A stretch of 64,000 bases of DNA from NCBI GenBank assembly GCA_000004985.1, contig GG738873.1; one strand, written 5' to 3'. Every line of letters starts with the position of its first letter. Positions within the stretch are counted from its first letter, which is position 1. Below, in pieces: positions 5,887 through 61,242 of the stretch. Source of the DNA: Naegleria gruberi. Taxonomy: Eukaryota. The translations under genes and the position numbers were made by a program. The notes beneath the pieces are model-generated. The model was not told the DNA's origin. It ran no database searches and saw only the letters and a program-made list of their open reading frames with translations.

Positions 5887-6342
5887 GTTGCTTGTTTTTT
5901 TTGAATTGTTTCTCTTGAGATTTTTATTTTTAGAAATTCTATTTATTTATTGAGGAAGATTTTTTTGGAGTTTTGACATTTTTGTAAGTGGACATATAAG
6001 TGCGTATTAATATTTAATTGTGCGCATTTGTAAAATTAATTGAAAACAAGAATGATTCTGTCGTGGATTTCACAATAAATGAATGAGTGGTGTCATCAGG
6101 TTGGAATATATTGTTTACATTATTGATTAATGCATTTTCCAATTCATCATTCCTATGGCACAGTCTCAAGGTTAATATTAAGGTCATATTGAAAGGATGG
6201 ATGTAACCCTTAATAAGACCAAATACGACTGGGAACTCCAATTAGAAAAAATATTGGCAGGAAAAAATTACAGTGAAAATAGACTCCTAAAAAAATGCTC
6301 TGTTTTCAACAGGAGAAGGAATTTCCTCACAAAAAGGAGTGT

Positions 6343-9300
6343 ATGATAATGTATCTAATATTTATTATATTTCTTTGTCAATATTTATCATCATCAACAT
6401 CAACACCATCATTGGGTGGATTAATATTTATTAAGGCAGAACAAACAAGAGTCAATAAGAGACAACAAGATGATACAAGTTTTATCTATCCAACCTATAC
6501 TTCGGAACTCTATGCAGGTAGAACTGATTTCAGTTCATCTATGGACATTTTCTTTAAACAAATGATTCCATCACAGGTGGATTCTAGAATTATCTACATG
6601 TCCTCGAAACTCACCAATTCAATCTATCAATATAATGACACTGATAAGAGTTTGATACAGATATTGCAAGGGAGCTATATAGAAGGGGAGGACACCTTAG
6701 TAAATGGTGATTTACTGATGGTTGAGAAGGAAGAAGTCAATTCTATTCAGTATGATTGTTTATATTATAATATTGAATCTAGAATGTGGAAATATTCAAT
6801 GAGGGACAGAACATCTTCTCGATTAACTGTTTATGGATTGGAACAAGTTTCAAAATTGGGTGTCAATAGACCTTTCGGATTTTTGGATTGGGGAAAGAAG
6901 AATCGAGTGTATGGAGTAGTGGAGGGGAAATTATTTCATGTAGAAAGGGAATACAATTTGACTTGGAATTTCACACAAGTTAAGGAGCTTGATTTGGAAA
7001 ATACTCAATGGGAAGGTTTGGCCATGCATAAAAACAGTGAAATTATGTACTTGATTGCAAATCGTACAATTTTCATGGTTGACATGAGCAAGGACTTGTT
7101 CATTAAGAAATTACAAACTCATGAAAGTCCCAAAATACCTTTTGCTGTTTATCACGATGGACAAGATGAGTATCTTTACTTTACTGCCAATTACGATTCG
7201 ATTTTGGTAAAGTGTCCAACTAAGGAATGCGATAGTGCTCTACCCATCTATACTAGAGACGAAATGATTAGGTCAGGATGGAAAATATTGAGCATTCCGT
7301 CAGCATTTGCCATTACAAAAGATGTTTTCCTATTCAATTCGTATTTTCCAAGGAGGGATGATATTACACACCTTGCACTTTATTCAATGATGGATAATGT
7401 TGCCTATCCAATTTACTCAATGGATGGTCCTATTTGGAATGGTGTTAATGCTTTGAACAGTTCTATATTTCCAACAGGTAAGTTTACAAATTTTTGCCAA
7501 ATTACTATAAATATACAGCGGTAAACTTACTAAAACATGCTGATGGAAGAAAGGAATTGCTTATTAGTGATTATACGAAAATTAGATCAATCTCAATGAA
7601 AGATAGAACCATTTCAGTGGTAAAGGTAGACAATTTGTGCACTTCTTTCACACCACAACTGCCTGCACTCTCCAATATTGGCTCTTCGGTCAACCATTCT
7701 GATGGCAGCTCTACCATATACGCTGCTTCCATTCCAGATACTAATGCACAGTCTTACTCTATCAAAATAGCATCTAATGGGCACACTACGTGGTGTCCTC
7801 TCTCAACAGATATTGAGAACATACCAGTGCCTAATGAGAGCCCTCTGAATCAATCCATGTTTAATGATCCTTCTGGTATTGTCTATTTGAATGGAGAAAT
7901 TTATATTGCTGATACAAAATCCAATAGAATCAGAAAGATTACAAAAGATGCAAGAGTATTGACCTTAGTTGGAGGTGGTAATATTAAGGGAGATAACTTG
8001 ACAGGAACTGATACCTATGCGAATGCCCCTTTCGGTATTGCTGTTTGCAATTCAACAGGAAACGTTTATTTTAGTGTTTCTAACGACCATTGTCTCAAAG
8101 TCTACTCTCAACAAACAGGTCTTGTTCAAAACCTTGCAGGAGATTGTGGAAAACCAGGAATATTTAATTTTCCAAAAGCAATTTCATTGGTGGAGAATTT
8201 CCTCTTTGTTGCCGATTCAATGAATCATAGAATTGCGAGGGTTAATTTAGAGACACGTTTAGTGGAGAGTCTAATTGGAGATGGACAAGCAGGTGAGACA
8301 TCAGACGACAACTATAGCGTAAGATTGAATTCACCAACTGGGGTTCACTATTGTGATGGATATTTATTTGTAGCAGACACTAATAATCATAGAATATTGA
8401 AGGTTTCTCATATACTTGATGTAACAAGTTATGCATACGTTGAAGTCATAGCAACAGGTAAGTTAAAAATTTACATTTTTGGAATATTGACAAAATTACT
8501 AAAAATAGATGATGATGTGAAATTGGCATATCCATATGGTGTTCATGCTTTCAAGATGGGTTACAAAATGTTTTATATCATTACCAATACATATAACAAC
8601 AGATTAATCTTTGCACAAGAAACTCCTTCAAGATATTTCACAGAAATGGGAAGTGGATTGCCAGGTTACAATGGAGACCTTTCCATATTTGAGGCAAGTC
8701 TTTTCAATCCAAAGGGAGTCTGGGTATCTGACAACATTATCTATTTTACCGATTCATCAAATAACCTGATTCGAAAAATCAACTTGTCTCGATTATATTT
8801 TATGGTTGAAACTGTAGCTGGTGGGCATGGTGATGGTGGCTCAATTTTGAATACTCGTATCAAGATTACAAGTTTCTCTCAAGCTCCTGGAGGGATTGTT
8901 GTGACTGATATTCAAAACAACCTGATCAGATTGATAAAACAAGATGGAACTGTCTCTACACTTGTTGGAAGTGGTGGCACACTTTACAATGGAGAGCTAA
9001 TAACTTCCAAGATGGTTAATTTAAATTACCCTTTTGGAGTTTTTGTTTTCAATAATGAAATATACTATTCTGATTCCAAGAATCTGAGAATAAGAAAAGT
9101 GGATCTAGATGGAATCGTCTCAACTGTGATACTCGACGGTAGCTATCCTTCAGCTCTCAGAGTTAGACTTAATGGTGACATAATTTATGTTACTCAAACA
9201 GGAATTAAGATTTTCCATGCCAAAACAAGTGAATTCCAAAATATTGTAACAGACAGCAATTTTCTCAAAGCATCTGTTGAGTACGATTCAGATGATGGTT

Positions 9301-11196
9301 CGATTTATTATGCAACAGATACTTCTGTTGTCAAGTTGACTCCAAGATGTAAGAATGGTTATGTGTTGGATGACCAATTTTCTGAGTGTATTCCAGTATG
9401 TTTCGGATATAATCAATTGGATGTGGAACAAGTTTGTTCTGGACATGGATTGTGTCTAGAGCCAGATAACTGTGGATGTTTTGACCATTACACGGGTAAT
9501 CAATGTGAAAATGCCAAATGTTTCGGTCTTGATGTTAATAATCCAAATATTTGTAATGGAAGAGGTCAATGTGTCTCAGTTGACACCTGTTCATGCTCCC
9601 AAGGCTATTCAGGAATTGACTGTTCCATTCCAGAATGTTTCGGAATCTCTGGAAACATGTCATGTAGTGGATCAGAAAGAGGTAGATGCATTTCACTCAA
9701 CATGTGTCACTGTAATTTGCCTCATTATTCTGGAAGAGCATGCGAGTTAGCAAACTGCTTTGGAATTCCACAAAATGATGCAAAAGTTTGCTCTGGAAAG
9801 GGAAGATGTGTCCGTCCTAACGAATGCAAGTGTGATACTGATTTTTATGACAAGGATTGTTCCAAGTTTGATAATACGAATTGGACAGTTGGAGTTGTTG
9901 TGGGAATTACAGGCGGTTTTGTTATTTTGTTGATGATTGTTGGAGTTGTGTTGATTGTAGTGTTGAGAATTTATAAGAAACAAAAGAAAATATTGGACAC
10001 TGACCTCGAATTGGATCGACAATTGTTGAGTTCTGAAGAAATCAATGGTTATTCTCGTGGTCATACTTCAAATTCAAGTAATAGTGTGGAGGAAGATTTT
10101 TATATCCCACTGAATCAATTAAATATGGACAAACCAATTAAGAGATTGGGAAGTGGTGGTATTGGAAGTGTATTCATGACAAAGTAAGTGTTAAATTTTG
10201 CCTAAATTCTAACTTTTTCATCAATCTTATTTTGAAATATTTCCAAAGATGGAATAATATCATTGTAGCGGTCAAAGTGTTTGATTTGAATAATGAAAAC
10301 ATTGGAATTGAAGATTTTATCAATGAGGCCTTATTACTCTCAAGACTTCGTCATCCAAATATTATTTCTTTTTATGGAGTTTCTTCATCTCCAACCAAAA
10401 GATACATTGCCATGGAGTGTATGGATGCAAGCTTGGAATCCTATATTCAGAAAATGCAAGCATTGCAGTTAAAGCTTCCATTCCGTACAAAAGTGAAAAT
10501 TATTTCAGATATTTGCAGAGGTATCATGTATCTTCACAATTTACAACCAAATTTTATTGTTCACAGAGATTTGAAACCTGCAAATATTTTACGTAAGTTT
10601 ATTTGATTTTTGACATGACTCTAATGTGAGTGAAATAGTTGATAAGGATGGCAATTGTAAAGTTTGTGATTTTGGTTTGGGAAGAGTTTTATCAAAAAAA
10701 ACACTTTCGAATATTACAGCACAGGTTAGTACATTCAAACTATTTCGAATGATTATTTAACTGTATATAGATTGGCACATGTGCATACATGAGCCCAGAA
10801 ATCTCAGGATTCTCTGGTAAGGATATTGATCGTTCACACGTTAAGGCAATTGATATCTTTAGTTTATCCATAATTTTCTATCAAATATTATTCGAAGTGA
10901 TGGATCCATACTCGAGTCAAGATTTGAGAGTGGTGGAAAAGATTGGACTTAAGGAACCAATTCATTATGAATCTTTTTATCATTTGCATAGAGCCATTTG
11001 TGAATTCAAAGTTCGACCTTCAATTCCATTCAATACTATTGAGTCGTGTGTGGAGTGGTGTAAAGTTTATGATTTGGAAGAGAATGCAACAATTTATTGG
11101 AAATTATGTGAAGATGTTATAAAGGAATCATGGAAAGAAGAAGCTTCCGAAAGACCTCCTATTGAAAAATTGGTAGAAATTGTTGATTCATTGTAA
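6343..11196 (+). CDS. Receptor-type Ser/Thr kinase: signal peptide, NHL-repeat beta-propeller, tenascin-type EGF repeats, TM segment and TKL-like kinase domain (5 exons)
   Basis: Exon structure: join(6343..7477, 7519..10183, 10249..10592, 10639..10724, 10771..11196). The 41-nt intron 7478..7518 (GTAAGT..ACAG) is required to fuse two long ORFs that sit in different frames. Introns 10184..10248 (GTAAGT), 10593..10638 (GTAAGT) and 10725..10770 (GTTAGT) restore kinase subdomains: GSGGIGSVFMTK|WNNIIVAVK, HRDLKPANIL|LDKDGNCKVCDFGLGRV, and ITAQ|IGTCAYMSPE. The signal peptide is MIMYLIFIIFLCQYLSS. NHL motifs (NxPxGIAV, IYIADTxNxRIRKI) are repeated. EGF units read CSGHGLCLEPDNCGCFDHYTGNQC and similar. 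The TM segment is VGVVVGITGGFVILLMIVGVVLIVVL. Confidence 0.8.
8458..8508 (+). other. Candidate in-frame 51-nt intron (or retained intron) inside the NHL region of the kinase gene
   Basis: The stretch gtaagttaaaaatttacatttttggaatattgacaaaattactaaaaatag has a perfect GTAAGT donor, an AG acceptor and an AT-rich body. Its length is a multiple of 3 with no stop, so the ORF track reads straight through it (GKLKIYIFGILTKLLKI). Confidence 0.35.
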
Positions 11197-33568: not shown

Positions 33569-34169
33569 TTTTTTGATCTTGTTGAACAGTTTACAATGAT
33601 GCTAATTGAGATGATGCTTCAAAATTATGGTGTTCATCACGAATATTAGTATTGTTTAAAATTCGAAAGATAATATTCGAATTTAGTTCATTCCGAAGTT
33701 TAGTTGTTATTATTGAAAATATAATTTATTTTCAATTCCAATCTGATGTTTCTCAATTCAATACCATATAATCCTCTCTCATTCTCGATATTAATAATAC
33801 TTTAAATCTGTGATGAATTTAATCATAATAATAATATTAAATCTCTTTAAAGTTTTCATCAATGAGAATGAATTATTCTTCATGATGTTCATCATGATCA
33901 TGTCCGTGATAGGAATTTGTAAATTCGCCCAAAGTTTTGAATACATTTGCAACGAGTTGGAAAAATTTAATAAAAATATCGCGCATTGCAGCTAACATTT
34001 TTTTTTCAAACCAAAAATCTCGGAAAATTGTAATATTTATTTCATTTAATTGCTTTACCAATTATCAATAATTATTTTGTGAATAATAACAGGCAAGTGA
34101 GAATGAGTTAGTTGGGTGCACACAACTAGAAGAAAACTTGGCCAAGTTCATTCACCTTCCAAAAAAAAA

Positions 34170-35144: not shown

Positions 35145-35513
35145 GCTGATTTTTCTATCATTGACAACACACTGTAAATAAAACAACAACGAGAAATATA
35201 TTTTACAATTTATTAATCCTAGCGCTAGAGATCTCATTGCTGGTTAAAAAGATTTTCATCACTCCTTACTCCGGGTTAGACGAATCTAATCCCAATTGGA
35301 AACTAATCTTCCTAAACTCTAAGTAAATTGACCACCAAATCCTTTGGATCCAAATGGCCAACTGCAGATGTCATCAGCTTATGACCTCAAAAGTTCCATT
35401 CAAAAAAAACCCGCCAACGGTCACTAAGAGGATAAATTGCTTGGTGCAGAAGAAGAATATATAGTTTAAATAGATTACACTCCAACTCCCTATTATTTGT
35501 TTTTATAGGAGTG

Positions 35514-38500
35514 ATGAAAAAGAGTAGAATAATGCTTCAGGATGAGGATGAATACTCCTCCGAATTGGTTCTAGAGGAAATTCCCATTCAGCAAGTGGGT
35601 GCTCCTCAGAAAATGTATAGTACAACAACAATGATTGGAACATCAACAAATAATCAACATCATCATCAGCATAATCATCAACATGATAATAGTAGCAGTA
35701 ACATTGGTAACCATAGTAATATCAATAATAATAATAATAATTATAGTGGAATATTGCAGAGGAAGGAAAATCTTGTTGCATCTCATCATCAAATAGTAAC
35801 ATCTAATTTAATAGAAAATCAATCACAGATGCAGCAAATTCGCACTGTCCATGTCCATGATGAGGCCAGGAATGAAGATTTTTGTGGAAATTCCATCAAG
35901 ACGACCAAGTATGAATTCTGGAACTTTATACCAAAGAATTTGTTTGAACAATTTCATAGATTTGCTAATTGTTGTAAGTTGTTTGATATTTCGAATTTTG
36001 GAGTTGTGAATGGAAATAGATTTCATGGCAATGGCCTTATTGCAGACAATTCCTGGGTTGTCACCAACTGGACGATGGACCTCTTTTGTGCCATTGAGTG
36101 TTGTCTTATTGTGCACAATGATAAAGGATGCCTATGAGGATATAAACAGAAGGATTTCTGATAGAGAAACCAATAATCGAGTGGCACATGTGCTTAGGAA
36201 TGGAGTTTTTGTGGATGTTCCCTGGAAGAGTGTCAAGACAGGAGACGTCATTAAGGTGAATAATATGGAACAATTTCCGTGTGATATATTAATTTATTCT
36301 ATATGCCCAATGGAGAAGAAATCTGGAGAGAATTTATGCTATGTGGAAACTTCACAATTGGATGGGTAGGTATCTCAAAATAATCGTTCTAATTAATCTG
36401 TTTATTATTCACAGTGAAACAAATTTAAAGATTAGAATTGCAAATGCAGAAACGAGCCGATTTACATCACCACTAGATTTTGAAAATAAGAGAATGAAAA
36501 TTGAATGTGAAATGGCAAATAACAGACTGTACAAATTTGAGGGAACATTGACAATGGAAAATGGAAAGAAAATCTCCCTCTCTCCAGACAATATTTGTTT
36601 AAGAGTAAGTTTTAATGAAATTTCTCGAGCATGATAAAATTTCTTTAGGGGTCAAGTTTAAAGAATACTCAGAATATCATAGGCGTTGCTGTATATACTG
36701 GAAATGATACCAAATTTATGAGAAATACCAAGTAAGTACTTTATTAAGTTTATGAACTAACAGAGAAAATTAAGGAAAACTCCACACAAAATGAGCAATA
36801 TTGAACGCCTAACAAATAGATTGGTGTTGATGGTTTTAGGAGTTCAATTATTTCTTGTGACTTGTTGTGATATTGGATTAATGATTTGGACTAGTGAGCA
36901 ACAACCAAAAGCTTGGTACATTTTCCCAAAAGCAAGGGAACATGACATTGGATTTATATTATTTGGTGGATTTAAAGGATTCTTTACAATTTTGATTTTA
37001 TTGACCAACTTGATACCTGTTTCGTTGTACGTTTCGATTGAAGCAACTAAATTGATTCAAGGGTCAATGATTAGTAAGGATCTAGAAATGTACCACGAAG
37101 AAACAGATACAAGAGCAAATGTAAGAAGTTGTGCTCTTAATGAGGATTTAGGACAAATTAATTACATTTTTTCTGATAAGACTGGAACACTGACAGAGAA
37201 TAAGATGAATTGTAAGTTTTATATTATTAACAACAATCAAAATATGTTTACATTCTAAATTTTTTAACATGACAGTATTGAAAATATCAATTAATGGAAA
37301 GGTGTACGATATAACAGATCCACAAATAACAAATGGAAATTGGAGACAAACAGAGGATTCCAATGAAATTTTACAATTCCTATTGTTACTTTCACTCTGT
37401 CATACAGTTATTCCTGAGAGGTCTTCCAAGGAAACGAACGGAGCCCAAGACAATACCATCTACCATTCATCCTCTCCTGATGAGATTGCTCTAGTTAAGG
37501 CAGCCAAGTTTTTAGGAGTAGAATTTCTCGATAAGACCACACACCAAGCCAATGTGAAAATACTCGAAGAATTCACATTGAAATATGATTTATTGGATTG
37601 TATTGAATTTTCAAGTGAAAGAAAGAGGCAATCTGTCATTCTCAGAAATGAGAGAGGTGAAATTATTCTCTACACAAAGGGAGCTGACTCTGTCATGTTT
37701 CCCTTACTTAATCCAGAATCCAATCACTTGCCTAGTACTTTACAACATTTGGATAGATTCGGTTCTACTGGTTTGAGAACGTTGGTGTGCGCAATGAGAG
37801 TACTGGATGAAAATGAATATCAACTATGGCATGAAGAGTATGAAAAAGCTAAAACTTCCCTCGACAATAGAAAGGAAAAGATTGAATCAGTTGCCACAAA
37901 AATTGAAAAGGATCTTTTATTATGTGGAGCTACTGGCATTGAGGATAAGTTACAAGAAGGAGTTGCCGATACTATTTACAATTTGAGATTGGCTGGTATT
38001 AATATTTGGGTATTGACTGGTGACAAAATGGAAACAGCCATCAATATTGGCTATTCGTGTGAACTTTTGGGCTCATCTATGAAATTATTAAAGGTAGAAG
38101 GAGAAACCTATGATGCAGTGGAACGACATCTTACTCACTGCCTTGCACAATTGAAAGAAAGTACTTTTTCCAAATTGGATAATAGCGATGTCATTTCTTC
38201 AGAGTATGCCTTAGTAATAGATGGAGAAAAGATGGAATTGGTTTTTTCGCATCAGAATTTGATAGATTTATTCCTTCATGTCTCAATCAAGTGTAAATCA
38301 GTAATTTGTTGTAGAGTTTCACCAAAGCAAAAGGCAGATATTGTCTTGCTAATCAAGAATAATGTTGAAAGTGTCACTCTGGCAATTGGAGATGGAGCTA
38401 ATGATTGCAACATGATTCAAAGTGCTCATGTTGGCATTGGTATTTCAGGATTGGAAGGATTAGCAGCCGTCAATGTTTCAGATTATTCAATTGCCCAATT

Positions 38501-39493
38501 TAGATTTTTGAAAAAACTTTTACTCGTTCATGGAAGATGGAGCTATAGAAGAGTTTCAAAATTGGTGCTCTATTGCTTCTATAAGAATAGTGTACTCTTC
38601 CTGACTCAGATGTGGTATATTTTCTTCAATGGATTTTCTGGAACTAGTATTCACGACAAGTGGAATATCACCATGTATAATTTACTCTTTTCAGGAATAC
38701 CTATTGTTGTATTTGCTGTTTTGGATAGAGATGTTTCTTCAAAGAGTGCTAACATGTTTCCTGAACTCTACTTCCAAGGAAGAAAGAATAGATTTGTAAG
38801 TAATTTATATTGTTGATAATTAATCCCAATTAGTTCAATTGGAAAGTTTTTATTTCATGGATTGTTAATTCAATTTTCCATTCACTTGTTTGCTTTTTCG
38901 TTCCATACCTGGCCTTTGCAGAGAGTAAATTTCCTGATGGACAAGATATTGATGCACAAACAATTGGTATAGTGATGTATACCTGTGCTGTTCTTGTCAT
39001 TACAATGAAACTGGCCATTGAAACCTCAACTTGGACCTGGATTAACTTTTTAACATATGGTCTCAGTATTGCTTTATGGCCTATTTATTTATTTTTCTAC
39101 GGATCTACCTTCCAAATGTTTAGAAGAAGAGCTCCTATTGTGAATGAGTCATATGACATTTCTCAAAGGTATAGAATTATATTTACTGCTCAATTTTGGT
39201 TGGTTGTTCTATTAGTGGTAATTACTTGTTGCATTAGGGATATTTTCTGGAAGTGGTGGATTAGATATTTCCAAACTAAAAAATTATACTACCTTGTACA
39301 GAGTTTGCAACACGAATCCATTACTAGAGATCACATTGCTCACGAAATGCCATTCATTGATAAGGAAGAAATGAGGCCACCAACTATCTCCCTTAAATCG
39401 AGATCATTATCAACTAGATTATCATATTTTAAGGAGAAGGTATTTTCGTACTTTGGTACAGTTTCAAGAAAAAAGTATTCTGAATTTGAGTAG
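35514..39493 (+). CDS. P4-type ATPase (phospholipid flippase, Drs2/ATP8-like), 7 exons, with an Asn/His-rich N-terminal extension
   Basis: Exon structure: join(35514..35973, 36020..36365, 36415..36604, 36649..36731, 36775..37211, 37276..38795, 38834..39493). The introns are 46, 49, 44, 43, 64 and 38 nt, all GTAAGT/GTAGGT...AG, and each restores a P4-ATPase consensus. The restored segments are FHRFANC|YFMAMALLQTIPGLSPTGRWT, ETSQLDG|ETNLKIR, NICLR|GSSLKNTQNIIGVAVYTGNDTKFMRNTK|KTPHKMSNIERLTN, ICSDKTGTLTENKMN and KNRF|FNWKVFISW. The motifs DKTGTLT, TGDKMETAINIG and GDGANDCNMIQSAHVGIGISG are present. Confidence 0.9.
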
Positions 39494-42600: not shown

Positions 42601-42977
42601 TGATAGGATGAATCGTCATGTATGGTAGATTTAATTGATGATGACGAAGAATTTGAATTTAAATTATTATTATCACTATTATTATTAATATTGATGTTAG
42701 AAAACTTCTCCAACACTTCCAACTCTCTCCTCCTCAGTTCATTCCTCTCCCGTTCTCTCTCCAGTCCAATCAGTGCATCAATTCTAAACTTTTCCACTTG
42801 TTCCCTCTCCCGAATGTGTTTTGGTGTTTCAATTTCTTCATCATCAGCAGCGGATGATGCGAGTGAGAGCAAACTTTCTTTGGATGTTTCATTGGCGGGA
42901 AAATCTGTAAAGCGTTTTCTTTTGAGTGGTGTTTGTTCTTCTTCTTTAATGTTGGTATTGTTGTTACTGTTGATCAT
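39661..42977 (-). CDS. Protein with two BTB/POZ (KCTD/T1-type) domains and a C-terminal domain with a nucleotidyltransferase-like acidic motif (4 exons)
   Basis: Exon structure: join(42977..41333, 41286..40761, 40715..40101, 40060..39661). The introns are 46, 45 and 40 nt (GTATGT/GTAAGT...TAG/AAG). They restore the frame at NVFAAG|GGILACLL, PTCCVG|FDGNQLY and QSIG|SFHPHT. BTB 1 reads VIKLMVGGKLFITTLATI...DELNPDYFPILLEHLRTG. BTB 2 reads IIFNVRGTKFTISMEKLL...IFHHIFQYLQYG. The C-terminal region carries WKNSDLDLFLYG plus a downstream GFDIPT, a [DE]h[DE]h ... h[DE]h pattern like the polymerase-beta superfamily. The G[GS] element is not evident, so this assignment is tentative. Confidence 0.75.
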
Positions 42978-51761: not shown

Positions 51762-54700
51762 CTAGTTGGTTGTTGCTTGAGGTTTTTGCATTTCAACATC
51801 TCTGGTCACTGAAACAGTTGAAGCATTGGATGCAGCCTTGTTAGAAGTACACTTCCACAAAACAATAACAACAATCAATGCAATCACCAACACTACAATA
51901 ATTGCAAAACCAACCACTGATGCAATAATTGCTCCAATATCTCCTGGAGTTAACGTAACACCAGTATTATCAGCATTCAAAGCTCCGGTTGCTTGGGCTT
52001 GCAATGGTTCGGGAATGAAGATGTGAGTTGACAATTTGGTGAACATGACTCTTTCCTTCTCAGTTTCAAAGTTTGGATAAATAGGAAGCTTAATCTTCAT
52101 AGTTTGTGGATTTTCGAGGACAACCTTGTGCTTATTAAGAGAAACACTATATGAAAGCATTGGAAGAATGATATTATTCCAGTTGGAGTGTTCTTCTTGT
52201 GTCTTGATACTGTTAATGAACTTGACAAATGAGTTTGCATTTCCAATATAGTGTTGATTGAAAGTATATTGAGCATCATTGACAAGGACACAGAGGTAAA
52301 TATTGTGTTCCTTTGTCAAATCAGAGAATTCCAATTCATCAGTATATTTTCCTTCATTATTGGTAAACTTGATTGAAACAGTAATGTTTTCATTCTTTAG
52401 TTCACTAAAGTGAATAGTTCCAGAGACTGTGTCTTGTAAGTTTCTCATGACAGCCCTAGATTCTACACGCATATAGACGGTTCCTTCCATGAGACCAGTA
52501 TTGGATTGCTTTGAGAAGCCAAAAACATTGGTTCTACTCGACTTGGAAGTGTAGAGACTTTCCAATTTGTTTTCTTCAGACTGCAACTTATAGCCAATAT
52601 AACCTTGAGTAGAATTTTCCATACCAATAACCATACCTAGACTACCGAAAGAGTTTCCTCTGTCTATGGCCAAACCAAATGGTGAAAGAGTTGAGTATTT
52701 GAATGACGTGTCAGCAGTTAAATCTAATTGATAGATTTCTAATGGTTCAATAAGGAGTTCTAATTCTGCAAATGATCCCGACACTTCAAGGTAAATAACC
52801 TTTGGAATGGAATTCAATGAGTTTCCAGTCTTTGACAAGGTGACAGCACTGGTCATGGCAATCATTGATGCAGTACTAAATGATGAGCCAGTCAACATTT
52901 TAATGGTAACATCAGCATTCTTAGGTAAGATTGGTGTTACGACAAATGAATGGAGGGATTGAGAAATTCCAGTATTTGGAACATACATGATAGCAGTTCT
53001 GGATTGAACACCATCAAAGACATGTCTAACAGTCTTACCACTGTTACCCTTATAGACTGGGAAGACAGTAAGTGTAGAATCGCTTCCAGTATAAGTGAGG
53101 AATAATGGGAATGAATTGGCTTTAACTTCCAAAAGATTTCCAACAAGAGTTCCATCATTAAGAGTGAGTTGACCAACTGATAAGCTAAATGACAAATAGT
53201 CTGGAACAATAGAAGGAATATCAATCAAAATGAGACCTGATCTAATCTTTACAGATTTTCCGAATTGAATAGAACTTCTATAATAATTGAAATTGACTGA
53301 AACTTGCTCTGTTTCTTCCTTACTGATAATGACCTTAACAATGTTAGTATTTTCAGCGACAAGATTTTGGAATGGAATTTGAACACTTTCTTGAGAAATT
53401 TCATAAGAAACAGAACCATAAGAAATTTGACATGCAACGGTAAAGCCCAAATTCAAAGTAATGCCATCATAGTAATCAAAGTTATCGGCGGCAATTGAGA
53501 TTTGTCTGGCAACAATTGTTGAATTATCAGTGATAGTTTCAACAATATTCTGCATTTCACTCACATCATAGATATAATCAATAGCCATAGTGTTTTCAAT
53601 GGATCTTCTTGACTTTTTCAAGCAGATACCACACAGTGAGCTAATGGCAGTTTCAGAAACAATTGGAAAGTCGTAAGTATAACCGTCCCATATGGTATAA
53701 TCATACAATTCAATTTCATCAATACCAACTTCACCATCAATACCCCAATAGACATTCATACCAAGTTTACAACCTGATTTTGGATTAGTTTGAGTTTTGA
53801 CATTAATGTATGGATTAATCTTAAAAATAATTGGGAATAATTCATAGAATGTAATATATAGAGTTGGTTCAAGAGTTGCCTTAGCTTGAGTTTGAAGAGA
53901 AAGATATTCACTCACTCTGAGACCACCACTAACTGATCCACTAGTTGTAGTCTTTTTATGGTTTCCCTCAATATATTCAAAACCTGCAGAGCCAGATCTT
54001 GTATAATCGCTTGTAAAGCTGACAGATGCACTGGCCTCCAAGTAGATTTTCAAACCGACTCCCATTCCAATTGCCATCTCAACAGGCAAAGGTCCAACAG
54101 CAAAGGCAGCAGTGTAAAAGTCCTTCTTCTTCATCAACTCAAATTCTCTTTCATATTTGCCTGTGGCCGTAACCTTCAAAGTTGGAAGTGTAACTCTCAA
54201 GGCATAAAAACCAGTACCTCTAGCAGTGTCTAGAATTTCCCATGGCATGTCAGTTTCAATGTATATATAATAACCAGCATAGAAACTAAAGAAACAATTG
54301 GTACATTCAAAGGTAAGGAATGAATAGGACATTGTAACTGACGATTGATCATAGGTAGGAATATTATTTGTGTAGAGAATCTTTCCCTTGCTATCTCTTT
54401 TCACATTCCAACCAATTTCAAATGCCTTATCATTGCTAGCAGAGCCAGAGAATCTTCCATTCTTGGCAACATAACCTAGTGGTCTACTCTTTAATAATTT
54501 GAGTTTTGAAAAGACTTGGAGGAGGGATAATTTACCAGTTTCTAATTGGAAATAAGTAATGCCATTCTCCTTGTTGTAAATCAACTCTGATTTGGTGACT
54601 AATCTGTAGAGAACTTTTTCATCAGTCTCTGCTTGATCATTGAGAGAGTGATCATAACAGGCAAAACTCTTCTTGCTTGAAACAAGCAAATTTCCAACAG

Positions 54701-55118
54701 CAAGATGATTCTTCATCATTTCAACATGATTTGGAACAGAGGCATCTGGTCTAATATACAAAATATTCCTAGTACAACCAATATCCATCACATATGGGTG
54801 ATAGTCAAGATTGTAGGTATCAAAGGCTAAAACAGCATCATACATGAATTGCTCAGAGCTTGGGGTTTCTTCAGTGTAACGAGCATTCCAAGGATTCTTA
54901 GAGGTAAAACGTTGCTGGGCCTTATTAAGATAGGGAATACTTTGAGGATTTCTCTTCGAAATAGATGGTAATGTTCTACCATTCTTGATTCTGAAGAGGA
55001 AATAATCTGAGGGTGTTTCAAAGTTTGGTCGTGTTGTCGTGCTTTCAGCTATTAAGAATCCCACTAAAAAACAAGTTATCCACACAAAGAGGATGGATTT
55101 TAGTAGAAGCCTAATCAT
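51762..55118 (-). CDS. Large type-I membrane protein (1118 aa): signal peptide, ~1040-aa extracellular region, single TM, short cytoplasmic tail
   Basis: The ORF runs from ATG 55118-55116 to TAG 51764-51762. The N-terminus reads MIRLLLKSILFVWITCFLVGFLIAES. The C-terminal TM segment is GAIIASVVGFAIIVVLVIALIVVIVLW, followed by a 30-aa tail. The ectodomain is beta-rich with many N-x-S/T sequons. No family was recognised. Confidence 0.8.
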   Translation of the reverse strand: MIRLLLKSILFVWITCFLVGFLIAESTTTRPNFETPSDYFLFRIKNGRTLPSISKRNPQSIPYLNKAQQRFTSKNPWNARYTEETPSSEQFMYDAVLAFDTYNLDYHPYVMDIGCTRNILYIRPDASVPNHVEMMKNHLAVGNLLVSSKKSFACYDHSLNDQAETDEKVLYRLVTKSELIYNKENGITYFQLETGKLSLLQVFSKLKLLKSRPLGYVAKNGRFSGSASNDKAFEIGWNVKRDSKGKILYTNNIPTYDQSSVTMSYSFLTFECTNCFFSFYAGYYIYIETDMPWEILDTARGTGFYALRVTLPTLKVTATGKYEREFELMKKKDFYTAAFAVGPLPVEMAIGMGVGLKIYLEASASVSFTSDYTRSGSAGFEYIEGNHKKTTTSGSVSGGLRVSEYLSLQTQAKATLEPTLYITFYELFPIIFKINPYINVKTQTNPKSGCKLGMNVYWGIDGEVGIDEIELYDYTIWDGYTYDFPIVSETAISSLCGICLKKSRRSIENTMAIDYIYDVSEMQNIVETITDNSTIVARQISIAADNFDYYDGITLNLGFTVACQISYGSVSYEISQESVQIPFQNLVAENTNIVKVIISKEETEQVSVNFNYYRSSIQFGKSVKIRSGLILIDIPSIVPDYLSFSLSVGQLTLNDGTLVGNLLEVKANSFPLFLTYTGSDSTLTVFPVYKGNSGKTVRHVFDGVQSRTAIMYVPNTGISQSLHSFVVTPILPKNADVTIKMLTGSSFSTASMIAMTSAVTLSKTGNSLNSIPKVIYLEVSGSFAELELLIEPLEIYQLDLTADTSFKYSTLSPFGLAIDRGNSFGSLGMVIGMENSTQGYIGYKLQSEENKLESLYTSKSSRTNVFGFSKQSNTGLMEGTVYMRVESRAVMRNLQDTVSGTIHFSELKNENITVSIKFTNNEGKYTDELEFSDLTKEHNIYLCVLVNDAQYTFNQHYIGNANSFVKFINSIKTQEEHSNWNNIILPMLSYSVSLNKHKVVLENPQTMKIKLPIYPNFETEKERVMFTKLSTHIFIPEPLQAQATGALNADNTGVTLTPGDIGAIIASVVGFAIIVVLVIALIVVIVLWKCTSNKAASNASTVSVTRDVEMQKPQATTN

Positions 55119-55332
55119 TTTTTTTTAATTGTTAAATGATGAACTTGATGAGGAAGAGACTGATTGGCGCGAGTTTGAACCGTAACGATAATTAATCTTG
55201 TTTGTAGATGAAAATATTATTAAGGAAGAGCAACAATATACCGTGGTAAAACTACCAACTAAAAGGCATAATGTTTGATGGAGACATTATTGAGAAGTTA
55301 ATGTTTGACAATGGAAAAAAGGAATATGTTTA

Positions 55333-58300
55333 TTAGTGAAGGAAAAGAGTAACTATAAGTACAAACAATAATGCTATAATATTACAATAGTAAGACAAGC
55401 TAGCTTGAGAGATGATTGTTTTCTGCTTGACCAAAGTTGTGAGTGTGTAGGCACCAGTACTGCTAATATCTGCAACAACAGAATCTTTAACAAAGGTTCC
55501 AACAGTACATCCAGAATCTGTACTGAACACATCCTTGCTATCGTCATACTTTTTACAGATGAGCTCTGTATTTTGAGGAAGGGAAGTTTCATTCTTCAAA
55601 GTTTGCATTCTCAATTTTACAAGGTTGGTATTTGAAAGCTTGAATGGAGAATAGCTATTTTCTGGAACAATGTTAAACTCAATTACCTTGGTGAACATAT
55701 CAAAGTCAGAGCCGAGAGAGAATTTAGAGACAGCATTTCTCTTGTCATAGATCATAAATCTTAAACTGGCGGATGCAACGTTTGGAATCAACTTGGAGAA
55801 TGTAGAGGAGAGTGTGATGGTATTTGAATTGTAGAGAATGTCATAGAAATTATTCATACTTGGGGAGGAGAGCTTTCTACTATATCCAACAACTCCATTA
55901 CCAATCACAACAGAGGCAGGCATATCTGGAGCATTATTCTTTGTTGAGGCTGCTACAATATTAGTGTAAGTAACGCCTAAATTCTTTAAATCATCATCAG
56001 TGAACAAATTCAGAGATCTTCTACGAGTTGATACATATCCAGAAAGAGCATTAGTGGCAGCAATAACACTAGAAATAGTGTTTAAGTCAAAGTTAACACT
56101 TTTAACAGAGGCTACAGTCTCAGTCGTAGATGCAAGTGTGGAAATGATAAGAGAGGTTGTCTTATCTGTAATAAAACCTCCAGTGACAGCTGGAATAGCA
56201 TTTGAAATAACAGAAGCTGTTGAGATTGCAGAGTCGCTTGTTTCCGGAACGAGACTACTTTGAGAGGATTTGGTGGAGATTACAGCCGAAACTAAATTAT
56301 TGGCTGCTTGTGAAATCTTCTCCTTTTGAGTTGCATCCAGAGAAGAGCTTGTTACAGATCCAATTACCAATAATGCATTTGATGCATCAGTGGAGGAGAT
56401 GGTGGCAACTTGTGAGCTGATAGAGCTCAAAACTTTGAATGTTTGCTCGACTGACAAGTTTTCCACTTTAACCTGCAGGATAGATTCTGTTGAGGCACCT
56501 TTGGCATCTGAAACAACAACCTTAACTGGCACCTTGTAAGAATTTGAAGAAGATCCAGAGGCCAGTCTCACACGAATTGATTTCAAATCAACAACTTTTT
56601 CCGATAGAGGTTTCCAATAGGTGCCATCATTGAAGAAGTATTGATAAGAAAGAGGGGCTTGAGGATCATTCCATCCGTTACCACACTTTAAATCAAATTC
56701 GTCCAAAGAGTAGCCACTTTGTGGGAAAACCTCAAATACACCTCTAGTTGGTGGGAAATTGACAGTGAAAGAGATTGATGCAGAACCATTCTTATTTCCA
56801 TCAGTAATCAACAAATCAAGAGAAATTGTTAAACCTGGAACAAGACTACTCTTTGGAATGATAATATAACTGAGACTTGTCTCCAAATTTGTTAAATCAA
56901 GGTTAGAAGATGTCCATTTGTATGATGGGTTGGATAAGGAATCCAAAAGGTTAGAGTTGAAAATTACATCCTGACTGCTGTCAACTGCCGATAAGTCAAT
57001 ACTTTGAGAAATACCTTGAGGCTTGGCAGAAATAGAAGCCTTGATAATCTTATCCTTTGAATCTGATAAAATTGTAACCAATAACACCTTTTGAATGCTT
57101 CTTGAACCTTTAGAGTAGGTTGCAGTGAAAGAATATTTTCCTGGCTGAAGGAGTTGACTGAATGGAGAACTCACAGAACCACAACCAGTATTGGTGGAAA
57201 TCTTAAAACATGCAATTGTGAGTGAATCAGAATCAGAGGTTGCACTTGGATCATTCTTAACAGCAGAAAACGAAACAAGTTCGTCGTAACCTTGAGAGAA
57301 GTCGGTTACATTGAAAGATAATTCTAATGGTTGACTAATTGCCTTTACAAGGAAAATTACACTAGTTTCAAGAGCTTGATCGGCAGTAACGGTTGCCTTA
57401 AAATAATAATTTCCTTCCTTCTTAATTGAAGTATAGCCAGAGCCAAAAATGAGCATTCTATTACTTGTGGAAAGTTTGAGAGAGGTGTCTACAGAGTTCA
57501 ACTCAACTGAGTAGCTAACTTTCAGCAAGCTAGAATTTCCGCTGTAACATGATGGGAAAGTGATAGATGGGACAATAATGGAAGAGCCTCCAATTAACAC
57601 TTGAACTTCTTCTGGAATATTTATGAATGGAACAACTGTAGTAACAACAGAGAAGGACAGAGTTTGATTGGAAGAATAACCAAATTGATTTGTAACCTTA
57701 ACTACAACTGAGTAACTTCCAACATTGAGTGCATTTGCTTGTATTGTAACAACAGATGTTTTAAGAGAATTGATCATATTGTTCAAAGTGGCAGAAGATG
57801 ATGACCAAGAATAGGTCAAAGCTCTTCTATCAGAAGATGAAGATGAGGAAGCGTCAAAAGATACCTTATCACATGTTGAAACAATGGACTTATCAGACTT
57901 CAATACAGCATCTGGCGGATTAGAAACAAGTGAACCAGTGGAAACAATCACACTAACAAAATTAGTTTTCTTTAGCAAATCAGAATAGAACATTAAGGTA
58001 CTTCCAGGAACAATTGTTGTACTTGAGCCTAAAATTATTTGGAATGAATTTTCAGAACTGGTATAAAGACAAGAAGCATCACTACCACCAATCAATGGAA
58101 GACTCTCTGCTGCAATGAAATAAGAGCATTCAAACTTTGTACTTATTGGAGAGTAAACTGTACCAGTAATTACATCTCCGTTCTTATTGAAGGAGAAAGA
58201 AGAAACACTCACAGAATAGTCACAATTTTCTCCATACCAACCAGTTTGACAAGATGAACAAGTTTTTCCAGAGAAATGACCAGAGCAAACACATTCTCCC

Positions 58301-60360
58301 ATAGAATTACAATTTCCATGAGATGAGCAATTACGGGCAGGAGTACAAACATTATCGCAATTAGATCCAAAATATCCTGCTGTACAGTTTGTGCAAAACT
58401 CGCCCGAAAAATTATCAGAGCAAATACAATTCTTATTGCTGCCACAAGTTCCTCTTCCATTACATGTTTTTTCAGCACTGCATGCTGCTTCTGTGCAATT
58501 AACCCCTGAAAAGCTTGGATTACATTCAGTACATTGTGAATTTCCATTCCAGTTGGAAAGGCAAGAGCAAGTATCTACAGCAGTGCAAGAACCATGGCCT
58601 CCACAAACGCTAGATGAACTCTTGCTGATTCCATAGCATTTGAATGAATTGCATGTTTCACCTTCGAATCCAGTTTTACATTTACATTGATTTGGAGAAA
58701 TACATTCACCTTGACCACTGCAAACATTCTTATCACTTGATGGAATATCAAAACACAGAGGAACTGCACAATTAGAGCCATAATAACCAAATACACAAAC
58801 ACATCCAGAATCTGTGCAATTTCCTTTAGAGTTGCAAACACTAGAATTATCAGAGCTAATCCCATTACACACATATTTTGGAGCTGATGGGGATGAATTA
58901 TTGTTTGAGTTAGTGCTATTTTGTGGAATTGTTGAATTTTCATAAGTTGAGCTGTTTGTTATTACTGTGCTGTTGTTGACAGTCGTATTAGAGTTATTAG
59001 AGCTATTGTATACATTAGTATTATTTTGAATTACTGTTGAGTTATCTTGGATTGTATTGTTCCCATTGGTTGTGCTATTGGAAGAATTTGTGCTATTAGA
59101 TGTAGAATTTCCTGATGAGGTATTGGTAGAATTGTCAATGCTTGTATTATTCCAAGTGGTACTATTGTCTGAAACTACAGGATTGACTGGATTAGTGGTA
59201 TTGCTGTTATCTGAAACGTTGTGATGTACAGTGTTGTTATTAGAAATATCAGTATTGTTGGTCAATGTACCATTTCCATTTAAGGTACTATTATTGGTGG
59301 TTGCAGAGTTGTTTGAGGAAGTCAAACATGTGCTACCCGAGAATCCATCATTACAGACACAAGTATTAAAATCAGTACATGCCCCATTTCCATTACACAC
59401 TTGGCTACTAGTACTTGCTACCCCAAAACATGAGGTCACATTACAAGAAGCTCCTGTAAACTTGGAAACTTTCAAACCCATTCCTGATACATCAAAGGAA
59501 AGAGGGCCACCAACTGCAATAATAATACTCCATTGCTTGATGAAAATACCAACCTTGTCATAAACTGTTGTTGTTGGAACTGTTCCATAGTGAATCCAAT
59601 CAGTTCCAGTGGCAGTCTTGTAATAAAACTTGTAACCTAATGGATTCTTTCTAACAAGAAGAGGTGCATGAGTTTGAGAAGATGAAAATGTGAAGGGACC
59701 ATCTGAATAGTGATTAATCAAATCTTCAGGGAGAACATCACAATACTTTTCATTATTGACAGCTATTGTCAACTTTGATGTATCGGTTGGACCACTTCCA
59801 ATGAAATAGTTGGCATTATTTGGATTGAGGCTATTATTTCTCCATACAACCACACCAATATGAGTTAGGCCTCCTCTAGCTTTCATGTCAATAACAGCTT
59901 CATAGGACCATTCATTGAAAATGCTTCCATCTACATTTCTTGGTACATCATTAAGGATTAATTCACCTTCCATTCTGTTACACCACCACATATCTTGTGC
60001 CTTATTCTTAGTTGAAATCGATATGTTTGGATAATTTCCTTGAATCCTATTCATTTCATAACTATTGAACAATGTGTTTGGGCTTGGATCATAGAATCTC
60101 ACTCCCCAACCAGAATCAAAGTTTTGAAGATAATCGACAGCTTGAGATGAATTTGTTCCCATACAAGAACAAACATCTTGAGAAATACACGATCCCCTTC
60201 CTGAGCAAACACTTGAATTGGAGGCTGCAATACCATAACATGAAATCTCTGTCGATTCAACAACCTTAATATTATTGAATATAATAAAGCCAAGAAGGAT
60301 ATTTAGCAAGGTCACGAAGTTAAATAATAACCTAAAAGAACCAGTTATTCTTCCCTTCAT
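55333..60360 (-). CDS. Giant membrane protein (1675 aa): signal/anchor, EGF-like modules, unknown ~300-aa globular region, hyper-N-glycosylation-sequon mucin-like stalk, laminin/tenascin-type EGF array, long Ig-like/beta-repeat region, C-terminal TM
   Basis: The ORF runs from ATG 60360-60358 to TAA 55335-55333. EGF-like modules read CSGRGSCISQDVCSC and CNGNGACTDFNTCVCNDGFSGSTC. A ~150-aa N/S/T-only segment is dense in NxS/T sequons. Nine or more Cys-rich EGF units follow (CSGQGECISPNQCKCKTGFEGETC, CNGRGTCGSNKNCICSDNFSGEFC...). After a long beta-rich region, the hydrophobic C-terminus reads YYCNIIALLFVLIVTLFLH. Confidence 0.85.
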   Translation of the reverse strand: MKGRITGSFRLLFNFVTLLNILLGFIIFNNIKVVESTEISCYGIAASNSSVCSGRGSCISQDVCSCMGTNSSQAVDYLQNFDSGWGVRFYDPSPNTLFNSYEMNRIQGNYPNISISTKNKAQDMWWCNRMEGELILNDVPRNVDGSIFNEWSYEAVIDMKARGGLTHIGVVVWRNNSLNPNNANYFIGSGPTDTSKLTIAVNNEKYCDVLPEDLINHYSDGPFTFSSSQTHAPLLVRKNPLGYKFYYKTATGTDWIHYGTVPTTTVYDKVGIFIKQWSIIIAVGGPLSFDVSGMGLKVSKFTGASCNVTSCFGVASTSSQVCNGNGACTDFNTCVCNDGFSGSTCLTSSNNSATTNNSTLNGNGTLTNNTDISNNNTVHHNVSDNSNTTNPVNPVVSDNSTTWNNTSIDNSTNTSSGNSTSNSTNSSNSTTNGNNTIQDNSTVIQNNTNVYNSSNNSNTTVNNSTVITNSSTYENSTIPQNSTNSNNNSSPSAPKYVCNGISSDNSSVCNSKGNCTDSGCVCVFGYYGSNCAVPLCFDIPSSDKNVCSGQGECISPNQCKCKTGFEGETCNSFKCYGISKSSSSVCGGHGSCTAVDTCSCLSNWNGNSQCTECNPSFSGVNCTEAACSAEKTCNGRGTCGSNKNCICSDNFSGEFCTNCTAGYFGSNCDNVCTPARNCSSHGNCNSMGECVCSGHFSGKTCSSCQTGWYGENCDYSVSVSSFSFNKNGDVITGTVYSPISTKFECSYFIAAESLPLIGGSDASCLYTSSENSFQIILGSSTTIVPGSTLMFYSDLLKKTNFVSVIVSTGSLVSNPPDAVLKSDKSIVSTCDKVSFDASSSSSSDRRALTYSWSSSSATLNNMINSLKTSVVTIQANALNVGSYSVVVKVTNQFGYSSNQTLSFSVVTTVVPFINIPEEVQVLIGGSSIIVPSITFPSCYSGNSSLLKVSYSVELNSVDTSLKLSTSNRMLIFGSGYTSIKKEGNYYFKATVTADQALETSVIFLVKAISQPLELSFNVTDFSQGYDELVSFSAVKNDPSATSDSDSLTIACFKISTNTGCGSVSSPFSQLLQPGKYSFTATYSKGSRSIQKVLLVTILSDSKDKIIKASISAKPQGISQSIDLSAVDSSQDVIFNSNLLDSLSNPSYKWTSSNLDLTNLETSLSYIIIPKSSLVPGLTISLDLLITDGNKNGSASISFTVNFPPTRGVFEVFPQSGYSLDEFDLKCGNGWNDPQAPLSYQYFFNDGTYWKPLSEKVVDLKSIRVRLASGSSSNSYKVPVKVVVSDAKGASTESILQVKVENLSVEQTFKVLSSISSQVATISSTDASNALLVIGSVTSSSLDATQKEKISQAANNLVSAVISTKSSQSSLVPETSDSAISTASVISNAIPAVTGGFITDKTTSLIISTLASTTETVASVKSVNFDLNTISSVIAATNALSGYVSTRRRSLNLFTDDDLKNLGVTYTNIVAASTKNNAPDMPASVVIGNGVVGYSRKLSSPSMNNFYDILYNSNTITLSSTFSKLIPNVASASLRFMIYDKRNAVSKFSLGSDFDMFTKVIEFNIVPENSYSPFKLSNTNLVKLRMQTLKNETSLPQNTELICKKYDDSKDVFSTDSGCTVGTFVKDSVVADISSTGAYTLTTLVKQKTIISQASLSYYCNIIALLFVLIVTLFLH
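58860..59330 (-). repeat. Low-complexity coding region (Asn/Ser/Thr-rich, NxS/T sequon array) within the giant membrane protein
   Basis: The encoded segment is ...NNTDISNNNTVHHNVSDNSNTTNPV...NSTSNSTNSSNSTTNGNNTIQDNSTVIQNNTNVYNSSNNSNTTVNNSTVITNSSTYENSTIPQNSTNSNNNSSP. At the DNA level it is AT-rich and cryptically repetitive. Confidence 0.5.
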
Positions 60361-60684: not shown

Positions 60685-61242
60685 TTACAAATCATCATTA
60701 TTTAATTGTGAATATTGTGATGGTGATGAAGAACCTCTTGAACGAGCAGTTACAATAATTCTATTCAATCCACAACAACAAAGAGGCAATAAACAGAACA
60801 ATAAAATAGCTCCACTAGCTCCAATCCAAGATCCGATAATAATCTTTTGATTTGTTGACTCCTCAGTGTTACTGTTAGGCTTCTTGATATTCTCACTCAG
60901 AGCCAATGAATAAATAACAATCAGTGCAATGGTTGCTCCCATCGAAATTAAAATCCAAATCATCCAATGGAAAGCACAACCAAGTAAATATTTGGAGAGT
61001 TTTCCTGGTTCATTTCCGAAACAGTCAATCACAGAAGCAACACCAACTACTCCAGTCAAGATGAAAACAGAGAGTGCAACATAGGTGAGAATGGTGAAGG
61101 CAAGTTCTCCACCTTCTGGGTGATAGCCATCTTTCACTTGGAGAACAATTTGAGCAATTAGATAACCCAATGATGGGAGTAAAAGACCGATTGAGCCTAT
61201 CAGTGTGCAAATGATGGATGCTGCAGAGGAAGAGACGGCCAT
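60685..61242 (-). CDS. Small four-TM membrane protein (185 aa), family unknown
   Basis: The ORF runs from ATG 61242-61240 to TAA 60687-60685. It has four hydrophobic segments (IICTLIGSIGLLLPSLGYLIAQIV, FTILTYVALSVFILTGVVGVASV, MIWILISMGATIALIVIYSLAL, IIGSWIGASGAILLFCLLPLCCCGL) and a Ser-rich cytosolic C-terminus. Confidence 0.55.
   Translation of the reverse strand: MAVSSSAASIICTLIGSIGLLLPSLGYLIAQIVLQVKDGYHPEGGELAFTILTYVALSVFILTGVVGVASVIDCFGNEPGKLSKYLLGCAFHWMIWILISMGATIALIVIYSLALSENIKKPNSNTEESTNQKIIIGSWIGASGAILLFCLLPLCCCGLNRIIVTARSRGSSSPSQYSQLNNDDL

Follow-up and report, generated by a model that had tools for sequence, protein, structure and literature searches.

The question raised by positions 51,762 to 60,360 of the Naegleria gruberi DNA analyzed here (contig GG738873.1; the whole stretch of 64,000 nucleotides is called the window below) is whether two large, neighboring genes for cell-surface proteins form a functional locus, or whether they lie side by side by chance. 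A first reading of the letters alone (the sequence-only reading) had proposed the former, in the shape of an adhesion or self-recognition locus. The genes are NAEGRDRAFT_68543 (55333..60360, minus strand), hereafter open reading frame (ORF) A, and NAEGRDRAFT_68542 (51762..55118, minus strand), hereafter ORF B. According to its translation and Pfam matches, ORF A encodes a surface glycoprotein of EGF, REJ and GPS-like parts (1675 amino acids (aa) plus stop); ORF B encodes a type-I surface protein of an uncharacterized heterolobosean family (1118 aa plus stop). We consider it likely that the two are unrelated members of fast-evolving heterolobosean surface-protein families, placed in tandem by chance. 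A role in adhesion or sensing, as surface receptors, is plausible from their architecture; a self-recognition locus is unsupported.

Both ORFs are free of introns and belong to the nuclear DNA of N. gruberi, on a scaffold of 461,873 bp. Their translations are 100% identical, over the full length, to XP_002676264 / D2VI32 (ORF A) and XP_002676263 / D2VI31 (ORF B), each entered as ‘predicted protein [Naegleria gruberi]’. The coordinates and lengths given by the sequence-only reading for two neighbors on one strand proved exact; both genes are on the minus strand, and the spacer from the stop of ORF A to the ATG of ORF B measures 214 bp (55119..55332, minus strand). By hydropathy scan each protein has an N-terminal signal-like hydrophobic segment and one C-terminal hydrophobic segment, in agreement with the earlier description of two large, secreted and membrane-anchored surface proteins, one of them (ORF A) with adhesion-type modules, namely EGF and PKD/REJ. 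Since ORF B opens with a Met and a signal peptide of its own, the two are separate genes. For the same reason we rejected an intron-mediated read-through of ORF A into ORF B or into more transmembrane (TM) segments; the annotated proteins, which equal the ORFs, also speak against it, as does the N. gruberi paralog NAEGRDRAFT_52311 (P0003), which has the same ending as ORF A. Neither protein matched a housekeeping or enzyme family (Pfam for both, the PDB and an exhaustive search for ORF B), so this ground for abandoning the sequence-only reading falls away.

What then connects the two genes? They show no similarity to each other (best BLASTP E=1.2), and the pairing is not conserved at the three loci of relatives that we compared. 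In Willaertia, the homolog of ORF B lies between ADP-ribosylglycohydrolase and RCC1-like genes on one side and, on the opposite side, a 316-aa gene without Pfam match together with one for CitMHS; it has no EGF/REJ neighbor, and tblastn finds no ORF-A-like sequence nearby. The REJ relative of ORF A in N. lovaniensis sits among the genes for ABCE1, Fis1, Pex16 and a mannosidase, and the contig of a metagenomic relative (P0005) presents small neighbors only; near neither of these does tblastn find an ORF-B-like sequence. Genes of this kind, moreover, are frequent: of the roughly 19 large genes in the 64-kb window, about four code for surface proteins with a single membrane pass. With these numbers, chance alone would place at least two of them next to each other in about half of all arrangements (~0.53, from 1 - C(16,4)/C(19,4)), and the adjacency of ORF A and ORF B is thus not evidence of their functional linkage.

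These results bear directly on the idea that the two form a functional cell-cell recognition pair, for self/non-self discrimination or mating, which would bind in trans or act as ligand and receptor and be polymorphic like tgrB1/tgrC1, or that ORF A on its own serves gamete recognition as sea-urchin REJ does. We regard this as unlikely, even though several observations are in its favor: the tandem, same-strand arrangement with so short a spacer; the large surface proteins encoded by both genes; and the adhesion-type modules of ORF A together with its REJ module, the founding member of the REJ family being a gamete-recognition receptor. Both genes also are lineage-restricted and fast-evolving: the nearest relative of ORF A is a paralog at 36% identity, and no homolog of ORF B was detected in N. 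fowleri or N. lovaniensis. What counts against a recognition pair, besides the lack of mutual similarity, the unpaired relatives and the chance-compatible adjacency, is that IPT/TIG domains are missing from both proteins, that a scan of the DNA encoding the stalk of ORF A found no tandem repeats that would favor copy-number variation, and that the protein collection holds one allele per gene (one sequence each, cluster size 1). Aggregation or kin discrimination is, to our knowledge, not known in Naegleria. The Dictyostelium pair TgrB1/TgrC1 resembles ORF A and ORF B in that adjacent amoeba genes encode large, glycosylated, single-anchor surface proteins. The Tgr proteins, however, are homologous to each other, carry IPT/TIG repeats, and are encoded by a divergently transcribed and highly polymorphic pair of genes, whereas ORF A and ORF B are without IPT/TIG, are not mutually homologous, and stand in tandem orientation. 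The recognition locus of the sequence-only reading thus finds no support here. Its characterization of the products as adjacent, highly glycosylated and repeat-rich fits the arrangement of the genes and, as regards sequons, the stalk of ORF A; it fails for ORF B, which with only four sequons in total is not highly glycosylated by this measure and is not detectably repeat-rich.

The chance-neighbor reading leaves the question of what each protein is. Judging by its sequence, ORF A is a member of a heterolobosean EGF-REJ-GPS family. It carries a firm REJ module (Pfam PF02010, aa 1035-1321; 107.2 bits against a cutoff of 25, E=1e-30), which according to Pfam also is present in three relatives, NAEGRDRAFT_52311, P0005 and P0011. 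The module belongs to a rod in which about six beta sandwiches of Ig-like type follow one another (aa 722-1300, 56461..58197, minus strand) delineated from Pfam, an AlphaFold2 (AF2) model and Foldseek, in which aa 815-901 are PKD-like, with sub-threshold matches to PKD_4 and K319L-like_PKD (17.6-17.7 bits against a cutoff of 27). The AF2 model covers aa 476-1675, was made from an alignment with seven homologs, and has a mean predicted local distance difference test score (pLDDT) of 64. It runs from EGF modules through the six or so beta sandwiches (pLDDT 70-88) to a seven-helix bundle, a beta region, and a terminal helix. Searched against the PDB by Foldseek, the model retrieved generic tandem Ig/FN3 ectodomains only (E about 1e-14), among them contactin, Robo, RPTP, cadherins, and S-layer proteins. 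There were no Pfam matches to IPT/TIG (at E<=0.1), LamG or classical Ig families in either protein. Of the long beta-repeat region that had been proposed in the style of PKD/REJ, Ig or IPT/TIG repeats, the REJ part stands firmly and the PKD part as a weak match; IPT/TIG and classical Ig drop out.

Between the rod and the membrane lies a GAIN-like region (aa 1304-1648, 55417..56451, minus strand), in which AF2 places a helical bundle at aa ~1304-1476 (pLDDT 60-80) followed by a beta region at aa ~1485-1643. Near its end we recognized a degenerate GPS motif (aa 1602-1643, 55432-55557, minus strand) from a profile match and the family alignment. The profile (A4), built from the C-terminal 360 residues of ORF A together with five homologs, matches the GPS of ADGRF1 in the PDB (E=2.2e-4) and, more weakly, those of ADGRE5 and ADGRL3 (up to E=0.25); Pfam GPS was not detected in ORF A itself. 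In the family alignment, ORF A has CKKYDDSKDVFSTDSGC...VVADISSTGAYTL where the metagenomic relative P0005 has the canonical CRYYSEGTSTWIADNSC...CECNHLTKFAG. The consensus for GPS autoproteolysis consists of four Cys and an HL followed by T/S; ORF A retains the first two Cys only, and both the CxC pair and the HL-T/S site are gone. Given these losses, of the second pair of Cys and of HL-T as the site of cleavage, autoproteolysis of ORF A at this motif is unlikely.

No seven-transmembrane (7TM) domain comes after the GPS-like motif: there is one hydrophobic segment (aa 1649-1675 by hydropathy), and the protein ends within it, the segment extending through the final residue. Pfam likewise gave no match to PLAT or PKD_channel families in ORF A, whose single hydrophobic segment outside the signal region is at the extreme C-terminus. 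The sequence there reads S1651-Q-A, then a six-residue spacer, SLSYYC, and a 16-residue hydrophobic stretch. This looks like the layout of a glycosylphosphatidylinositol (GPI) attachment signal rather than a type-I anchor, and we annotate the C-terminal hydrophobic peptide (aa 1652-1675, 55336..55407, minus strand) as a candidate GPI signal, with an omega site near S1651, from hydropathy and sequence. The terminus of NAEGRDRAFT_52311 has the same layout. The type-I anchors with almost no cytoplasmic tail that the sequence-only reading gave to both proteins accordingly need revision: ORF A has the layout of a GPI signal, and ORF B does have a type-I anchor, yet with a real tail of 30 aa.

Such an ending might also be taken as a sign of decay, ORF A being a truncated or degenerating polycystin-1-like or adhesion-GPCR-like receptor (GPCR, G-protein-coupled receptor) of little function, which lost its multi-pass domain and kept the first TM segment as a remnant. 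A degenerate GPS without the CxC pair and HL-T site would fit this, as would a protein that stops inside a hydrophobic segment, and one relative (P0008) does run on into multiple hydrophobic segments beyond its GPS-like region. The 5-kb ORF, however, is intact and without stops, and the DNA downstream contains no further TM-rich coding sequence but another gene, which has a signal peptide of its own. NAEGRDRAFT_52311, only 36% identical, has the same GPS-like sequence and terminal tail; the layout of ORF A is therefore old and conserved, and not the outcome of a recent truncation. We thus judge decay to be quite improbable.

The N-terminal half of ORF A begins with a signal peptide region (aa 1-36, 60253..60360, minus strand), with a hydrophobic core at aa 8-34 in the hydropathy scan and a cleavage site predicted from sequence. 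Then comes a 230-aa domain (aa 70-300, 59461..60153, minus strand) between single EGF modules at aa 40-67 and 305-346. This domain had no match in Pfam or in a sequence search of the PDB, nor a counterpart in any of the 21 homologs retrieved; to the eye it has a beta-rich look, and it would lie at the distal tip. The stalk that follows (aa 347-500, 58861..59322, minus strand) is rich in Asn, Ser and Thr (46 N, 32 S and 29 T) and contains 30 NxS/T sequons in 154 residues, which bears out the sequon-saturated stalk of some 150 aa in the sequence-only reading; the paralog NAEGRDRAFT_52311 carries a comparable one. The EGF arrays of that reading likewise were found, at aa 505-715 (58216..58848, minus strand; AF2 pLDDT 60-85), with Pfam matches to EGF_2 (4.9e-17) and teneurin-type EGF (EGF_Teneurin, 4.2e-12) and, inside the array, a marginal one to DSL (26.3 bits against a cutoff of 24.2). 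UniRef has assigned ORF A the automatic name ‘Delta-like protein’. We set this aside as an artefact of the EGF array, given the marginal DSL match and the lack of a match to MNNL. Delta/Serrate (DSL) ligands of Notch share with ORF A this DSL match in an EGF array, just above threshold; unlike them, ORF A has no detectable MNNL/C2 N-terminal domain, and its REJ and GPS-like parts are foreign to Notch ligands.

The true homologs of ORF A are the heterolobosean EGF-REJ paralogs: NAEGRDRAFT_52311 (2481 aa), which is the closest with 36% identity over 69% of the query and which has the stalk, the GPS-like sequence and the terminal tail; NAEGRDRAFT_48114 and NAEGRDRAFT_64611, each with a single TM plus short tail; and C9374_009380 of N. 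lovaniensis, which contains a Peptidase_S8 domain. With these ORF A has in common the EGF arrays, the REJ module, the GPS-like motif and one hydrophobic anchor. It differs in being shorter, in having fewer EGF modules, and in its unique N-terminal 230-aa domain, and some paralogs have what it does not: a canonical CxC, additional domains, or a TM followed by a short tail in the cytoplasm. Further relatives include P0005, with a canonical CxCxHLT GPS (CECNHLT) and one TM, and P0011, likewise with one TM, whose CxC motif is GPS-like. Metagenomic proteins belong to the family as well, one of which continues into several hydrophobic segments.

Outside the Heterolobosea, the order PKD-like, REJ, GPS, membrane has been reported for polycystin-1 and for the REJ proteins of sea urchins. 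ORF A resembles the ectodomains of suREJ1/SpREJ1 and polycystin-1 in its firm REJ, in the apparent PKD/Ig-like sandwiches and the EGF modules ahead of it, and in the GPS-like motif that comes after it, beside the membrane, within what looks like a GAIN region. In suREJ1, as in ORF A, there is one membrane anchor and not 11 TM helices. Unlike in suREJ1 and polycystin-1, the C-type lectin, LRR, PLAT and polycystin channel-like domains were not found in ORF A; its GPS is without the second Cys pair and HL-T/S site, its anchor resembles a GPI signal, an Asn-rich stalk and an N-terminal domain are added, and its host is a heterolobosean amoeba instead of a metazoan. The adhesion GPCRs (ADGRF1, ADGRL3) are similar in that their GPS aligns with the family profile of ORF A and in that the model is helical, then beta, as in GAIN. 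ORF A has, in contrast to them, no 7TM, tethered-agonist or cleavage consensus, and its beta subdomain is poorly modeled.

Taken together, these features would make ORF A most likely a surface molecule that serves adhesion or captures ligands, its targets being substrate, prey or other cells, because it has the ectodomain plan of REJ proteins and polycystin-1 without a channel-like, 7TM or cytoplasmic part. It would enter the secretory pathway by its signal peptide and probably come to rest on the outer leaflet through a GPI anchor attached around S1651. Moving away from the membrane, one would meet first a GAIN-like domain whose GPS remnant would not be cleavable, then about six Ig-like PKD/REJ sandwiches in the form of a rod, the EGF array as a rigid element, the stalk, which we expect to be heavily N-glycosylated, and a distal head formed by the 230-aa domain between two EGFs. 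Signaling, if there is any, would have to pass through a partner in cis.

ORF B is built differently. It is a true type-I membrane protein, with a TM helix at aa ~1061-1088 followed by the 30-aa cytoplasmic tail (the helix and tail together aa 1061-1118, 51765..51938, minus strand, from hydropathy and sequence; AF2 helix at aa 1058-1099). Its ectodomain opens with a conserved beta-rich module (aa 90-500, 53619..54851, minus strand) that we defined from the exhaustive HMMER search, alignments and AF2. Over some 400 aa, the family including ORF B shares the consensus CxxC...GPxPV...PY...CxxC, in ORF B as CxxC(Y/F) at aa 272-277, GPLPV at 342-346, NPY at 435-437 and CxxC at 496-499. The rest of the ectodomain (aa 501-1055, 51954..53618, minus strand) is beta-rich with pLDDT <50 in AF2, and is conserved only with the N. 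gruberi paralog NAEGRDRAFT_69374 (P0031; BLASTP 2.9e-57) and weakly with Willaertia P0023 (2.8e-7). For ORF B, no match to a Pfam family rose above noise, and sequence searches of the PDB, with the module profile as well, found no relative. A word-index homolog search with ORF B retrieved itself only, and with the trimmed module profile (A2) nothing. In the exhaustive HMMER scan of 1.84 billion representatives, the module was found in nine proteins: ORF B, Willaertia magna ABK040_013583 (phmmer 1.8e-39), an N. gruberi paralog fragment (P0024; 8.4e-21), Pharyngomonas kirbyi P007340 (9e-7), four metagenomic proteins, and one from Paenarthrobacter. NAEGRDRAFT_69374 aligns with ORF B end to end (BLASTP, 27% identity, E=4e-105). 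A single member had matched DUF7223, below threshold, and we set this assignment aside.

Three observations on this family may be added. In one metagenomic member the module is fused to thrombospondin type-1 repeats, which fits an extracellular role. The Paenarthrobacter sp. protein (WP_309073975, P0029), annotated as S-layer/TolB, matches the core of the module with its aa ~159-288 (E=1.9e-4), including a GPVPV and an FTS...G.KY..G motif; as far as this alignment goes, the module may not be confined to eukaryotes. The N. gruberi fragment, NAEGRDRAFT_54764 (373 aa, on a 9,432-bp contig), is a partial second copy of NAEGRDRAFT_69374 (on a 395,411-bp contig), at least 90% identical to it and differing by few residues. 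Probably it is an allelic haplotig in the NEG-M assembly, which hints that allelic variation of the ORF B family could be read from the existing assembly.

As to function, ORF B may tentatively be placed beside ORF A as most likely another binding or adhesion ectodomain: a type-I protein whose exposed part would open with the Cys-bracketed, beta-rich module of 400 aa. The AF2 model of ORF B (mean pLDDT 45.7; pLDDT 50-80 in the module) shows antiparallel beta hairpins of ~40 residues, and one family member has a weak Pfam match to OMP_b-brl. Both observations could be read as pointing to a membrane-active or lipid-binding beta-sheet domain, akin to pore-formers or lipid-transfer proteins and directed against prey or serving lipid uptake. 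We find this very improbable, since confidence in the model is low, the MACPF, aerolysin and other toxin families were not detected by sequence, and the module is anchored in the membrane as part of a type-I protein. The most novel of the readings, which we also find very improbable, joins the two genes again: the module of ORF B would be a new extracellular domain family and, at the same time, ORF B and the GPI-anchored-looking ORF A would be a heterophilic recognition pair, for example in mating. The range of the module would then comprise heteroloboseans, metagenomic proteins (probably of other protists) and possibly an actinobacterial protein. A use of ORF A in mating would echo the gamete-recognition role of sea-urchin REJ; mating in Naegleria is, as far as we know, still unobserved.

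Several points weigh against the view that ORF A and ORF B are chance neighbors of the kinds described. Same-strand genes 214 bp apart could be co-regulated, and the comparison of loci covers Willaertia, N. lovaniensis and a metagenomic contig, so that the N. gruberi paralogs NAEGRDRAFT_52311 and NAEGRDRAFT_69374 might themselves be paired. As for the build of ORF A, the beta half of the GAIN-like region has pLDDT <50 in AF2, the GPS match comes from a family profile of six sequences of which some have canonical motifs, and GPI anchoring is predicted from the layout of the sequence. Our literature searches yielded no paper that names either gene and experimental or expression data for neither; papers on Acrasis and on the Naegleria pangenome were included and have nothing on ORF A or ORF B.

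Other genes in the window deserve brief mention. Two on the plus strand likewise carry EGF arrays. At 6295-10187, NHL repeats, a teneurin-type EGF array and a TM indicate a surface or receptor gene, which an intron probably splits between the ORFs 6295..7524 and 7494..10187. At 18823-22752 (18880-22752 for the NHL, EGF and kinase unit), a gene has a signal peptide, NHL/TEN_NHL repeats, teneurin-type EGF, a TM and a protein kinase, a receptor-kinase architecture with counterparts (P0012-P0014) in N. lovaniensis and N. fowleri. It appears that ectodomains with EGF arrays have expanded throughout the genome of Naegleria. Next to ORF A, on its upstream side and in the same orientation, a 185-aa ORF (60685-61242, minus strand) has several hydrophobic stretches and no Pfam match; by eye we count four segments, which gives it a tetraspan-like appearance. 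The consecutive same-strand ORFs at 34116-38816 (plus strand), which include a fragment (37269..38816) that matches P-type ATPase, HAD hydrolase and PhoLip_ATPase_C, are probably one intron-split gene for a P4-ATPase flippase. Finally, the 576-aa protein at 41247-42977 (minus strand) combines low-complexity runs rich in Asn and Ser with a pair of BTB_2 domains of the KCTD type; the ORFs downstream overlap, which points to a gene model with introns for this region together with 40097-41464 (minus strand).

If ORF A and ORF B are indeed unrelated neighbors, they would be an ordinary addition, two uncharacterized entries, to the fast-evolving surface repertoire of a free-living amoeba. The small family of ORF B is marked by its conserved module of 400 aa, for which there is neither a Pfam model nor a recognizable fold, and the module is a candidate for domain definition. 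This and the finding of REJ with a GPS-like remnant on apparently GPI-anchored or single-pass proteins in Heterolobosea (Discoba) are of modest specialist value; neither makes a long-standing question testable. The occurrence of REJ and GPS-like parts on such anchors suggests that the REJ-GAIN ectodomain cassette can work without polycystin or 7TM domains, and if vertical descent explains its presence in heteroloboseans, the cassette would seem to be ancient.

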